Assembly: GCF_003334765.1 (NCBI RefSeq)
Contig: NZ_QOWT01000009.1
Length of the DNA stretch: 64,000 bases
Strand: one strand, 5' to 3'
Source: Escherichia coli
GTDB lineage: Bacteria; Pseudomonadota; Gammaproteobacteria; Enterobacterales; Enterobacteriaceae
Within the stretch, counting starts at the first letter, position 1; each line of letters opens with the position of its first letter. Positions 39,053 through 44,470 of this stretch are shown piece after piece. The translations under genes and the position numbers were made by a program. The notes under the pieces are model-generated. The model did not search any database. It was not told the DNA's origin and worked only from the letters and a program-made list of their open reading frames with translations.

Positions 39053-39141
39053 GTAGGTCGGATAAGACGCCCCGGCGTCGCATCCGACAATGTGCAGGCG
39101 TTGATGCCGGATGCGGTGCAAGCACCTTATCCGGCCTACAG
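39053..39141. repeat. REP pair (BIME) between phnD and phnE
   Basis: taggtcggataagacgc...gcgtcgcatccgaca and gatgccggatgcggtgcaagcaccttatccggcctac. Confidence 0.85.
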
Positions 39142-39154
39142 ACCGGAGCCAAAC

Positions 39155-39942
39155 ATGCAAACCATCACCATCGCCCCACCCAAGCGCAGCTGGTTCTCGC
39201 TTCTGAGCTGGGCCGTTGTACTCGCCGTGTTGGTCGTCTCGTGGCAGGGCGCGGAAATGGCCCCGCTTACGCTGATCAAAGACGGCGGCAACATGGCGAC
39301 GTTCGCCGCCGACTTCTTCCCGCCCGATTTCAGCCAGTGGCAGGATTACCTCACCGAAATGGCCGTCACGCTGCAAATCGCCGTCTGGGGCACCGCGCTG
39401 GCGGTGGTTCTCTCCATCCCCTTTGGCCTGATGAGCGCCGAAAACCTGGTGCCGTGGTGGGTTTACCAGCCCGTTCGCCGCCTGATGGACGCCTGCCGCG
39501 CCATTAACGAAATGGTCTTCGCCATGCTGTTCGTGGTCGCCGTCGGCCTCGGCCCGTTCGCTGGCGTGCTGGCGTGCTGGCGCTGTTTATCCACACCACC
39601 GGCGTGCTCTCCAAGCTGCTTTCCGAAGCGGTGGAAGCGATTGAACCCGGCCCGGTGGAAGGCATTCGCGCCACCGGTGCCAACAAGCTCGAAGAGATCC
39701 TCTACGGCGTGCTGCCACAGGTGATGCCACTGCTGATCTCCTACTCCCTCTATCGCTTCGAATCCAACGTCCGCTCGGCGACCGTCGTCGGCATGGTCGG
39801 CGCAGGCGGGATCGGCGTCACCCTGTGGGAAGCGATTCGCGGTTTCCAGTTCCAACAAACCTGCGCCCTGATGGTGCTTATCATCGTCACGGTCAGCCTG
39901 CTGGATTTCCTCTCTCAACGGTTGCGTAAGCACTTTATCTGA
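39155..39942 (+). pseudogene. phnE: phnE, phosphonate ABC transporter permease, disrupted by a frameshift (8-bp tandem duplication at 39560-39575)
   Basis: Frame A (39155-39724) encodes the N-terminal 139 aa then runs into nonsense; frame B continues ...[13 protein letters not shown]... to 39942; mentally removing one gctggcgt copy restores a single ORF. Confidence 0.88.
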
Positions 39943-39962
39943 TAAGCGAGGCATTGATATCT

Positions 39963-40688
39963 ATGCACTTGTCTACACATCCGACCAGCTACCCAACACG
40001 CTATCAAGAGATAGCCGCAAAACTTGAGCAGGAGCTTCGTCAACACTACCGCTGCGGCGACTATCTTCCCGCCGAGCAGCAACTGGCAGCGCGCTTTGAG
40101 GTGAATCGCCACACCCTGCGCCGCGCCATCGACCAACTGGTGGAAAAAGGCTGGGTACAGCGCCGTCAGGGCGTCGGCGTGCTGGTGCTGATGCGCCCGT
40201 TCGATTACCCGCTCAACGCCCAGGCGCGTTTTAGCCAGAATCTGCTGGATCAGGGCAGCCATCCCACCAGCGAAAAACTGCTTTCGGTATTGCGCCCCGC
40301 GTCCGGCCACGTCGCTGACGCACTGGGGATTACCGAGGGGGAGAACGTCATCCACCTGCGCACCCTGCGTCGTGTCAACGGCGTCGCGCTCTGTTTAATC
40401 GACCACTACTTCGCGGACCTCACCCTCTGGCCGACGCTGCAACGCTTCGACAGCGGCTCGCTGCACGATTTTCTGCGCGAGCAAACCGGAATTGCGCTGC
40501 GCCGCAGCCAGACGCGGATCAGCGCCCGCCGCGCCCAGGCCAAAGAGTGCCAGCGTCTTGAAATCCCGAATATGTCGCCGCTGCTGTGCGTGCGCACCCT
40601 TAACCACCGTGACGGTGAAAGCAGCCCGGCGGAGTACTCCGTCAGCCTGACGCGCGCCGACATGATTGAATTCACTATGGAGCACTGA
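39963..40688 (+). CDS. phnF: GntR-family regulator PhnF (241 aa)
   Basis: Start at MHLSTHPTSY; N-terminal GntR HTH. Confidence 0.93.
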   Translation: MHLSTHPTSYPTRYQEIAAKLEQELRQHYRCGDYLPAEQQLAARFEVNRHTLRRAIDQLVEKGWVQRRQGVGVLVLMRPFDYPLNAQARFSQNLLDQGSHPTSEKLLSVLRPASGHVADALGITEGENVIHLRTLRRVNGVALCLIDHYFADLTLWPTLQRFDSGSLHDFLREQTGIALRRSQTRISARRAQAKECQRLEIPNMSPLLCVRTLNHRDGESSPAEYSVSLTRADMIEFTMEH

Positions 40689-41722: not shown

Positions 41723-42786
41723 TGTACGTTGCCGTGAAAGGGGGCGAGAAGGCGATCGACGCCGCCCACGCCCTGCAAGAGAGCCGACGCCGAGGCGATA
41801 CCGATTTGCCCGAACTGAGCGTCGCCCAGATTGAACAGCAGCTTAACCTCGCGGTAGATCGCGTGATGACCGAAGGCGGCATTGCCGACCGCGAACTGGC
41901 GGCGCTGGCGCTGAAACAGGCCAGCGGCGATAACGTTGAAGCGATTTTCCTGCTGCGCGCCTACCGCACCACGTTGGCGAAGCTGGCGGTAAGCGAGCCG
42001 CTCGACACCACCGGGATGCGTCTCGAACGCCGTATCTCCGCCGTTTATAAAGACATTCCCGGCGGCCAGCTGCTTGGCCCAACCTACGACTACACCCATC
42101 GCCTGCTCGATTTTACCCTGCTGGCAAACGGCGAAGCGCCGACGCTGACCACCGCCGACAGCGAACAGCAGCCGTCGCCGCACGTTTTCAGCCTGCTGGC
42201 GCGTCAGGGGCTGGCGAAGTTTGAAGAGGATAGCGGCGCACAGCCGGATGACATCACCCGCACGCCGCCGGTTTACCCCTGCTCACGCTCCTCCCGTTTG
42301 CAGCAGTTGATGCGCGGCGACGAAGGCTATTTGCTGGCGCTGGCCTACTCCACCCAACGCGGTTACGGGCGCAATCACCCGTTCGCAGGCGAGATCCGCA
42401 GCGGCTATATCGACGTGTCGATTGTGCCGGAAGAGCTGGGATTTGCGGTGAACGTCGGCGAACTGCTGATGACTGAGTGTGAAATGGTTAACGGTTTTAT
42501 CGACCCGCCGGGTGAGCCGCCGCACTTCACGCGCGGCTACGGGCTGGTGTTCGGCATGAGCGAGCGCAAAGCGATGGCGATGGCGCTGGTCGACCGCGCT
42601 CTGCAAGCCCCGGAGTACGGCGAGCACGCGACAGGCCCGGCGCAGGATGAAGAGTTCGTGCTGGCACATGCCGACAACGTCGAAGCCGCAGGCTTTGTCT
42701 CACACCTCAAACTCCCCCACTACGTCGATTTCCAGGCCGAACTGGAGCTACTCAAACGTCTGCAACAGGAGCAGAACCATGGCTAA
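41722..42786 (+). CDS. phnI: C-P lyase subunit PhnI (354 aa)
   Basis: Start at [13 protein letters not shown] overlapping phnH stop (TGATG); track ORF has spurious 40-codon upstream extension. Confidence 0.94.
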   Translation: MYVAVKGGEKAIDAAHALQESRRRGDTDLPELSVAQIEQQLNLAVDRVMTEGGIADRELAALALKQASGDNVEAIFLLRAYRTTLAKLAVSEPLDTTGMRLERRISAVYKDIPGGQLLGPTYDYTHRLLDFTLLANGEAPTLTTADSEQQPSPHVFSLLARQGLAKFEEDSGAQPDDITRTPPVYPCSRSSRLQQLMRGDEGYLLALAYSTQRGYGRNHPFAGEIRSGYIDVSIVPEELGFAVNVGELLMTECEMVNGFIDPPGEPPHFTRGYGLVFGMSERKAMAMALVDRALQAPEYGEHATGPAQDEEFVLAHADNVEAAGFVSHLKLPHYVDFQAELELLKRLQQEQNHG

Positions 42787-43624
42787 TCTGAGCGGCTACA
42801 ACTTTGCCTACCTCGACGAGCAGACCAAACGCATGATCCGCCGCGCCATCTTAAAAGCGGTGGCGATCCCCGGTTATCAGGTGCCGTTTGGCGGGCGCGA
42901 GATGCCGATGCCGTACGGCTGGGGAACCGGCGGCATTCAGCTTACCGCCAGCGTGATTGGCGAAAGCGACGTGCTGAAGGTGATTGACCAGGGCGCGGAT
43001 GACACCACCAACGCCGTGTCGATTCGCAACTTCTTCAAGCGCGTGACCGGGGTAAACACCACGGAACGTACGGACGATGCGACGGTTATCCAGACGCGTC
43101 ACCGCATCCCCGAAACGCCGCTGACCGAAGATCAGATAATTATCTTCCAGGTGCCAATCCCCGAGCCGCTGCGCTTTATCGAGCCGCGCGAAACGGAAAC
43201 CCGCACCATGCACGCGCTGGAAGAGTACGGCGTGATGCAGGTGAAACTGTATGAAGATATCGCCCGCTTCGGTCATATCGCCACCACCTACGCCTATCCG
43301 GTGAAGGTAAATGGGCGCTACGTGATGGACCCGTCGCCGATCCCGAAATTCGATAACCCAAAAATGGACATGATGCCCGCCCTGCAACTGTTCGGCGCGG
43401 GGCGCGAGAAGCGCATCTATGCGGTGCCGCCGTTTACCCGCGTGGAAAGTCTCGATTTCGACGATCACCCGTTCACCGTTCAGCAGTGGGATGAGCCATG
43501 CGCCATCTGCGGATCGACCCACAGCTATCTTGATGAAGTGGTGCTGGATGACGCCGGAAACCGCATGTTTGTCTGCTCCGATACCGATTATTGCCGCCAA
43601 CAGAGCGAGGCAAAAAACCAATGA
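42779..43624 (+). CDS. phnJ: C-P lyase catalytic subunit PhnJ (radical SAM-like, 281 aa)
   Basis: Start at MANLSGYNFAYLDEQ; C-terminal Cys cluster (CAICGS...C...C); track ORF extended upstream. Confidence 0.94.
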   Translation: MANLSGYNFAYLDEQTKRMIRRAILKAVAIPGYQVPFGGREMPMPYGWGTGGIQLTASVIGESDVLKVIDQGADDTTNAVSIRNFFKRVTGVNTTERTDDATVIQTRHRIPETPLTEDQIIIFQVPIPEPLRFIEPRETETRTMHALEEYGVMQVKLYEDIARFGHIATTYAYPVKVNGRYVMDPSPIPKFDNPKMDMMPALQLFGAGREKRIYAVPPFTRVESLDFDDHPFTVQQWDEPCAICGSTHSYLDEVVLDDAGNRMFVCSDTDYCRQQSEAKNQ

Positions 43625-44379
43625 ATCAACCGTTACTTTCGGTCAATAACCTGACCCACCTTTACGCGCCGGGCAAAGGCTTTAGCGATGTCTCTTTTGA
43701 TTTATGGCCGGGGGAAGTGCTGGGCATTGTCGGGGAATCCGGCTCCGGGAAGACCACGCTGCTGAAGTCGATCTCCGCGCGCCTGACGCCGCAGCAGGGG
43801 GAAATTCACTACGAGAACCGTTCGCTGTATGCAATGAGCGAGGCCGACCGCCGTCGCCTGCTGCGTACCGAATGGGGCGTGGTGCATCAGCATCCACTCG
43901 ACGGCCTGCGCCGCCAGGTGTCGGCGGGCGGCAATATCGGCGAGCGGCTGATGGCGACCGGGGCACGTCATTACGGCGATATTCGTGCCACCGCGCAGAA
44001 GTGGCTGGAAGAGGTGGAGATTCCCGCCAACCGGATCGACGACCTGCCGACCACCTTTTCCGGCGGTATGCAGCAGCGTTTGCAGATTGCCCGCAACCTG
44101 GTGACGCATCCGAAGCTGGTGTTTATGGATGAACCGACCGGCGGGCTGGATGTGTCGGTGCAGGCCCGCCTGCTCGACCTGCTGCGCGGCCTGGTGGTGG
44201 AGCTGAACCTCGCGGTGGTGATTGTCACCCATGATTTAGGCGTCGCCCGCCTGCTGGCGGACCGTTTGCTGGTGATGAAGCAGGGGCAAGTGGTGGAGAG
44301 TGGGTTAACCGACCGCGTGCTCGACGACCCGCATCATCCGTATACACAGCTGCTGGTGTCATCGGTTTTGCAGAATTGA
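43621..44379 (+). CDS. phnK: ABC-type ATPase PhnK (252 aa)
   Basis: Start at [11 protein letters not shown]; Walker [10 protein letters not shown]. Confidence 0.94.
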
Positions 44380-44382
44380 GCC

Positions 44383-44470
44383 GGTGCCGGATGCGGCGTA
44401 AACGCCTTATCCGGCCTACAAATGCGCTCCCCGTAGGTCGGATAAGACGCGTCAGCGTCGCATCCGACAC
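44383..44470. repeat. REP pair (BIME) inside the phn operon between phnK and phnL
   Basis: gccggatgcggcgtaaacgccttatccggcctac ... taggtcggataagacgcgtcagcgtcgcatccgaca. Confidence 0.85.

Follow-up and report, generated by a model that had tools for sequence, protein, structure and literature searches.

Paired REP elements in the two uncoupled junctions of the Escherichia coli phn operon: a possible role as intercistronic mRNA barriers

The phosphonate (phn) locus of Escherichia coli lies, with its sense strand as the plus strand, in the 64,000-nucleotide (nt) stretch of DNA analyzed here (RefSeq assembly GCF_003334765.1, contig NZ_QOWT01000009.1), which we call the window and number from its first letter. 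Two pairs of repetitive extragenic palindromic (REP) elements occupy the only two junctions of the 14-gene phn operon that lack translational coupling of the neighboring genes, phnD-phnE (site 1) and phnK-phnL (site 2). We propose, at a probability of roughly 55%, that the REP hairpins act on the phn message after its transcription, as barriers to 3' exonucleases, and uncouple downstream translation. A hairpin follows the binding-protein gene phnD in every species that we examined, where it appears to have a selected role. At phnK-phnL, insertion of the REP pair into a permissive junction of 7-10 nt is the more probable history, and any stabilizing effect there is probably a by-product.

Results

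Gene coordinates are those of the RefSeq annotation of an identical strain, carried over to window numbering. A 7.2-kb query from phnD to phnL is 100% identical to several E. coli chromosomes, and most of it is present in 5,390 of 5,426 complete genomes. The features of the locus are these, with the whole-gene entries transferred from RefSeq:

37220-38008, plus strand: phnC
38033-39049, plus strand: phnD, with stop codon TAA at 39047-39049
39053-39089, minus strand: site 1 Z2-type REP, 37 nt, GTAGGTCGGATAAGACGCCCCGGCGTCGCATCCGACA; GTAG-led, inverted relative to phn transcription, 3 nt past the phnD stop; hairpin of -20.0 kcal/mol, z -4.3
39090-39104, plus strand: site 1 linker, 15 nt, head to head; holds GTG 39092, the start of the longest phnE open reading frame (ORF)
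39105-39139, plus strand: site 1 Y-type REP, 35 nt, forward; hairpin of -19.8 kcal/mol, z -4.5; ATG 39104 abuts the unit and runs into it
39145-39157, plus strand: phnE ribosome-binding site GGAG (39145-39148) and supported start ATG 39155, both unpaired in the predicted fold
39155-39942, plus strand: phnE, frameshifted
39559-39582, plus strand: 8-bp unit GCTGGCGT of phnE, present three times (two in intact alleles), the frameshift
between phnE and phnK, plus strand: phnF to phnJ
43621-44379, plus strand: phnK, with stop codon TGA at 44377-44379
44385-44419, plus strand: site 2 Y-type REP, forward, an exact consensus match with in-frame ATG 44391 inside; hairpin of -22.3 kcal/mol, z -4.3
44420-44432, plus strand: site 2 linker, 13 nt, tail to tail, AAATGCGCTCCCC
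44433-44469, minus strand: site 2 Z2-type REP, 37 nt, inverted; hairpin of -21.3 kcal/mol, z -4.9
44480-44492, plus strand: phnL ribosome-binding site GAGG (44480-44483) and annotated (RefSeq) start ATG 44490
44490-45170, plus strand: phnL
phnM to phnP, plus strand: the last gene ends at 48041

An initial annotation of this DNA, made from the letters alone, had described most phn junctions as tightly overlapped, and the spacing bears this out. Gaps of 24 nt (C-D), 20 nt (E-F), 0 nt (F-G) and 1 nt (O-P) were found, the remaining junctions are overlaps of 1-14 nt, and the only sizeable gaps are D-E with 105 nt and K-L with 110 nt. The same annotation had placed two REP pairs within this single operon, at 39053-39141 and 44383-44470; both are there, each made of one Y and one Z2 unit.

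E. coli REPs are described as GTAG-led imperfect palindromes of 35 (y), 29 (z1) or 37 (z2) nt, often paired as bacterial interspersed mosaic elements (BIMEs) (PMC8266576). All four phn units carry GTAGG or its complement CCTAC, are 35 (Y) or 37 (Z2) nt long and have bulged stems, as in that definition. They stand as inverted pairs with short linkers, and each pair is extragenic, with a stop codon on one side and the ribosome-binding site of the following gene on the other. The family is multi-copy, with 11 units in the window, and a 331-nt query containing the phnK/L pair matches at least 27 places per E. coli genome (median). The site 2 Y unit has no mismatch to the 34-nt consensus used (0 matches expected from 100 shuffles), and in the site 1 Y unit the upper stem is GGTG/CACC versus GGCG/CGCC in the consensus, both arms having changed with pairing kept. 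Site 1 reads as inverted Z2-linker-Y and site 2 as Y-linker-inverted Z2, the alternating, inverted composition of BIME-2, with one pair per site and none of the tandem amplification typical of that class. Both features are ordinary E. coli REP pairs. The RefSeq feature tables of MG1655, W3110 and the best-matching strain give no repeat features.

Other REPs lie elsewhere in the window. A solitary Y-type unit, with 3 mismatches to the consensus, is at 17776-17809, and a REP325 array at 36298-36597, between yjdM (phnA) and yjdN (phnB), consists of three 100-bp Y-Z2 units scoring 95-111 bits against Rfam RF02564. Since this array has 3 units in the window, 6 in MG1655 and 1 each in strains 602354 and Survcare253, its copy number varies between strains, and the strain of the window is not MG1655. 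Unlike BIME-2 arrays such as REP325, the phn sites hold single pairs, and the site 1 linker is longer than the head-to-head linker of REP325.

REP325, the founding locus of the nucleoid-associated RNA naRNA4, lies 2.5 kb upstream of site 1. The phn pairs might themselves act at the level of DNA or the nucleoid, by contact with gyrase or HU/cruciform structures or as an naRNA4-like RNA, instead of on the phn message. The minus strand of site 1 does match Rfam naRNA4 (RF02564) with 69.1 bits against a gathering score of 59.5, and BIME-2 elements are reported to be gyrase targets, as relayed in PMC8266576. That match, however, is antisense to phn, on the wrong strand relative to known transcription. 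In sense, site 1 scores 50.5 bits; the site 2 scores of 42.7, 36.4 and 29.5 bits are likewise sub-threshold, and on the transcribed strand neither site reaches 59.5 bits. Any Y-linker-Z2 pair will score on the naRNA4 model, because that model is in effect one such unit, and the phn sites share this architecture as single pairs, not as the tandem arrays typical of BIME-2. A role of this kind would be very unlikely.

Folded on the phn sense strand, the single REPs reach -19.8 to -22.3 kcal/mol (z -4.3 to -4.9), and each whole pair can also fold as one long helix, of -52.8 kcal/mol at site 1 (z -4.1) and -60.7 kcal/mol at site 2 (z -6.5). At each site the hairpin begins 3-7 nt past the stop codon (39049 to 39053/39057, and 44379 to 44383/44385), and the downstream ribosome-binding sites are unpaired in the predicted folds. 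Both sites have one feature of an intercistronic REP mRNA stabilizer, a stable sense-strand hairpin right 3' of the cistron to be protected and no terminator tail.

Such closeness to the stop codon could also have the opposite consequence. Because each REP starts 3-7 nt past the stop codon, the terminating ribosome would have to melt the hairpin and might stall there, with cleavage of the mRNA and rescue by transfer-messenger RNA, leaving less PhnD and PhnK. Where a REP follows a stop codon by 15 nt or less, the upstream gene is reported to yield less protein, and about half of E. coli REPs would qualify (Liang, Rudd and Deutscher 2015, as relayed in PMC12306157); both phn pairs have this geometry. 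The predicted direction is opposite to that of a stabilizer, however, and less binding protein than permease would run against the usual design of ATP-binding cassette (ABC) importer operons. No phn entries were found in the RepRanger supplements. We consider down-regulation of this sort improbable.

The REPs have also misled the calling of start codons. The initial annotation had held that the phnL ORF starts inside the repeat, and in substance it was right. The longest ORF takes TTG 44376 as its start, a codon overlapping the phnK stop TGA and giving a spurious long phnL, and the first in-frame ATG, at 44391, lies inside the Y REP in the sequence GCCGGATGCGG. The extension translates to a typical REP-type peptide, and RefSeq starts phnL at ATG 44490, after GAGG. 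For phnE, the longest ORF opens at GTG 39092 within the site 1 linker, and the curated MG1655 phnE1 coding sequence (839 nt) starts at ATG 39104, at the Y REP, with 17 REP-encoded residues preceding MQTITIAPP. The Prokaryotic Genome Annotation Pipeline (PGAP) places the start at ATG 39155. The sequence GGAGCCAAACATG, at the phnE ribosome-binding site and start, is kept in Citrobacter and in E. coli alleles in which the repeat is of another family, BoxC. Since strains with another element in the gap match the window only from GGAGCCAAACATG onward, the N-terminal extension cannot be conserved protein. PGAP, the BoxC alleles and the orthologs support ATG 39155 for phnE, and not the curated K-12 start.

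Neither REP pair is followed by a U-tract, the tails being AGACCGGAGC and CCCGAACCAC, and none of the 22 terminator-like matches in a 13-kb scan falls at a REP pair. An intrinsic terminator at either pair was rejected for want of both a scan match and a T-run. Because no U-tract follows them, the pairs are not intrinsic terminators and RNA polymerase passes both. RNA sequencing (RNA-seq) of K-12 under phosphorus starvation assembled phnC to phnP as a single transcript, both at 2 h and at 4 h (Li 2013, PMC3734233), and therefore both junctions are read through.

Rho-dependent or otherwise factor-assisted termination at the BIMEs would lower the number of downstream transcripts with no differential decay. 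Attenuation associated with BIMEs has been described (Espeli et al. 2001, as cited in PMC8266576), transcription and translation are uncoupled over the 105 and 110 nt of the untranslated gaps, and in K-12 coverage falls along the phn operon under phosphate starvation (Li 2013, PMC3734233). These gaps are almost wholly base-paired and G-rich, however, and therefore poor sites for Rho loading; the lack of a U-tract and of any terminator-like match at either site, together with the full-length transcripts assembled under starvation, also speaks against attenuation. We find it quite unlikely and, like the DNA-level roles (gyrase, HU, naRNA), less likely than the classical reading of the pairs as mRNA barriers.

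Published expression data bear on that classical reading. At M9-P, a delta-phoB mutant compared with wild type showed -3.2 log2 for phnC and -2.05 for phnD (borderline, p about 0.05), no usable p-value (NA) for phnE to phnH, and non-significant or inconsistent values for phnI to phnP (Choudhary 2020, PMC7657598 supplement), PhoB dependence thus being measurable for phnC and phnD only. Both this and the K-12 coverage agree with more phnCD than distal message, and neither is decisive, because REPs are multi-copy and map poorly and because K-12 and the window share a frameshift in phnE. A phnL-P sub-transcript in Li 2013 was set aside as low-coverage fragmentation, its 5' end lying about 130 nt inside phnL and not at the REP. 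The paper on the carbon-phosphorus lyase structure says nothing of the intergenic region, and no phn entries turned up in the supplement of PMC9624429.

The phnE frameshift splits the gene into ORFs that end at 39724 and 39942, and K-12 carries the same 8-bp triplication as the window. It is known as the K-12-type cryptic, phase-variable frameshift of phnE (Iqbal 2004, as cited in PMC3734233). About 240 nt are left untranslated downstream of the phnD/E REP pair, and this may cause polarity on phnF-P. With this frameshift so soon after the first REP pair, phn expression measured in K-12 says little about the wild-type operon.

For a comparison across species, we took 80 loci encoding PhnK relatives, one genome per species, and then located the neighboring genes. 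A phnD-phnE gap of at least 52 nt with a fold of -15 kcal/mol or lower was present in all 34 other species with the canonical gene pair (median -27.3 kcal/mol, median z -3.4). Folds that strong occurred in only 1 of 32 phnC-D gaps and 2 of 10 phnE-F gaps, both gap types being short and unstructured. The phnD-phnE hairpins start a median of 3 nt past the stop codon, and a T-rich tail (at least 5 T in 8 nt) follows in only 3 of the 34 species. In Photobacterium, Grimontia and Agarivorans (loci L040, L046 and L048), the post-phnD hairpin is followed by a T-run and resembles an intrinsic terminator or attenuator; these Vibrio/Alteromonas relatives differ from enterobacteria and most Pseudomonas, whose post-phnD hairpins are tail-less.

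The post-phnD hairpins are unrelated in sequence between taxa. They range from unique G+C-rich stems (Pseudomonas, Stutzerimonas, Hafnia and the Vibrio relatives) and REPs of the Pseudomonas type (other Pseudomonas) to REPs of the E. coli type (Citrobacter) and CCCTCTCCC/GGGAGAGGG palindromes (Kluyvera, Leclercia and Enterobacter). The structure stays in place while its sequence turns over, and on this ground we argue for selection on the hairpin.

The phnK-phnL junction presents another picture. Its gap is 7-30 nt in 51 of 79 species, and in Citrobacter sp. FP75, Leclercia, Cedecea neteri, Hafnia and several Enterobacter and Pseudomonas it comes down to a stop codon, a Shine-Dalgarno sequence and ATG (7-10 nt), the empty junction of Citrobacter and Leclercia being TAAGAGGCCAACATG. 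A strong hairpin occurs in only 16 of 79 gaps, each time from the genome's own repeats; the genome's own REP family fills the junction in Kluyvera, E. cloacae, E. asburiae, Pluralibacter, C. werkmanii, Pseudomonas and Stutzerimonas. Because the longer gaps hold each genome's own repeats, occupancy looks opportunistic. The sequences indicate that this junction tolerates insertion and has been colonized repeatedly.

One locus (L009, QNRL01000011.1, labelled Pseudocitrobacter faecalis DSM 27453) encodes Phn proteins 98-99% identical to those of E. coli, compared with 84-95% for Citrobacter and Enterobacter. Its two junctions measure 251 and 298 nt and contain four and five BoxC-like units in tandem. 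This points to genes acquired recently from E. coli, or else to a contig that is mislabelled or contaminated.

Both sites vary among E. coli strains. Junction-specific queries found the phnD/E REP pair in 3,877 and the phnK/L REP pair in 4,842 of 5,426 genomes. The other genomes sampled have BoxC/TMECO palindromes, in single, double or larger form, in place of the whole segment that separates stop codon and ribosome-binding site. At phnD/E the replacement is a single or double CCCCTCTCCC-TTGA-GGGAGAGGG(-TTA-GGGTGAGGG) in about 28% of genomes, a share estimated from the shortfall of the REP query and from evenly spaced rows, a BoxC re-query at 80% coverage having failed to separate the alleles. 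At phnK/L it is a double element in 551 genomes (about 10%). Examples are loci L003, L004 and L005 (phnD/E), L006 (phnK/L), L089 and L090. Three haplotypes were seen directly: REP/REP (the window and K-12), BoxC/REP (strain 602354) and BoxC/BoxC (strain Survcare253). Every sampled allele has a strong mRNA hairpin at both sites, of -50 and -61 kcal/mol for the REP alleles and -24 to -95 kcal/mol for the BoxC alleles, and no junction was empty among the sampled E. coli genomes.

The BoxC motifs of E. coli are identical to published type A and type B TMECO sequences. TMECO are the earlier BoxC or PIT elements, intrastrand-triplex sequences with 23 copies in MG1655 and no reported promoter or terminator activity (PMC4666352). 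The family takes the same two phn slots in other E. coli strains, but it is unrelated in sequence to REP and is at neither REP site in the window. No perfect BoxC core was found in the window. A search with the published type-A motif located CCCTCGCCCCTCTGGGGAGAGGGTTAGGGTGAGGGG at 48065-48100 on the minus strand, 24 nt past the phnP stop at the 3' end of the operon; this copy is number 22 in the published MG1655 list (PMC4666352). An Rfam scan of the BoxC alleles returned only sub-threshold microRNA noise.

The main rival to a function in the message is neutral occupancy, in which selfish or domesticated mobile palindromes, spread by TnpA(REP)/RAYT (REP-associated tyrosine transposase), fill uncoupled gaps with no selected effect on phn. 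Mobility of REPs and BIMEs by TnpA(REP) has been described (PMC8266576), and the polymorphism between REP pairs and BoxC-type palindromes at both E. coli sites fits this account. The case is stronger for phnK/L, only 7-10 nt in many relatives and elsewhere filled by the genome's own REP family. Passive insertion does not explain, however, why the phnD/E gap is never empty and holds non-repeat, species-specific hairpins in many taxa, nor does it fit the E. coli genomes sampled, with no empty junction and a hairpin of at least -24 kcal/mol kept by every allele at both sites. We hold neutral occupancy to be unlikely as the account of both sites.

Discussion

We propose a model where RNA polymerase reads through the phn operon and each REP pair forms very stable hairpins in the mRNA, 3-7 nt past the upstream stop codon, leaving the downstream ribosome-binding site free. 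The hairpins would block 3'-to-5' exonucleases, and the upstream segment would then outlast the distal one, phnCD at site 1 and phnC-K at site 2. The gene downstream of each pair would be translated by independent initiation and not by coupling. The analysis shows the identity, positions, folds, lack of a terminator tail, comparative pattern and polymorphism of the pairs, whose effect on decay and protein ratios we infer. The initial annotation had already suggested a decay barrier. That suggestion gains support at phnD/E from the lack of a U-tract, the hairpin in 34 of 34 species, the declining coverage and the PhoB dependence measured for phnC and phnD only, and it is weaker at phnK/L, a junction of 7-10 nt in many relatives.

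The arrangement at phnD/E has precedent. A binding-protein gene of an ABC importer operon followed by a stabilizing hairpin is a long-known design (Higgins 1982 and Newbury 1987, as described in a citing paper). As with the malE-malF and hisJ-hisQ stabilizers, the phn REP pair immediately follows phnD, which encodes the periplasmic binding protein, and precedes the gene of the permease, and it is a stable hairpin with no U-tract in an operon that is read through. The phn system differs in its gene order, which is ATPase, binding protein, permease, and in having a second pair, phnK/L, among genes for enzymes and not the transporter; stabilization of phn mRNA would be by analogy with those systems.

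Several points weigh against this model. In 51 of 79 species phnK/L is an empty junction, and therefore the operon can function with no hairpin at that place; the REP pair, in a junction colonized independently by different repeats, may be a tolerated passenger. The existence of read-through transcripts means that any barrier acts after transcription. Gaps or fragment ends in RNA-seq data at multi-copy REPs can be mapping artifacts, and polarity caused by the phnE frameshift can account equally well for the step-down after phnD in K-12. Finally, lowering of the upstream protein of the Liang type, which the initial annotation did not consider, would counteract stabilization.

It is tempting to speculate, and we do so tentatively, that evolution has conserved the gap after phnD as a structural slot, one in which an mRNA hairpin is obligatory and any available palindrome can serve. 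Pseudomonas and the Vibrio relatives would fill it with unique hairpins, Citrobacter and most E. coli with REPs, and Kluyvera, Leclercia, Enterobacter and about 28% of E. coli with BoxC/TMECO triplex motifs. Within E. coli, either the REP pair or the BoxC palindrome supplies the post-phnD hairpin.

The elements themselves are already known. They belong to an ordinary family recognized since the 1980s, numbering hundreds in E. coli and first described as intercistronic elements in transport operons, and the phn operon is well studied. What goes beyond the textbook is modest: a post-phnD hairpin slot universal among the species examined, repeated colonization of phnK/L, and an exact swap of REP for BoxC cassettes in E. 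coli. A practical consequence is that REPs corrupt start-codon calls, for phnL and also for the curated K-12 phnE with its 17 REP-encoded N-terminal residues.

Beyond annotation, an allele swap at two fixed slots, combined with a universal hairpin after phnD, offers a clean natural system for the study of segmental mRNA stability and subunit stoichiometry. The exact REP and BoxC cassettes at both E. coli junctions would serve as natural, isogenic-like variants with which to test whether 'selfish' repeats have been recruited as stabilizers inside an operon.

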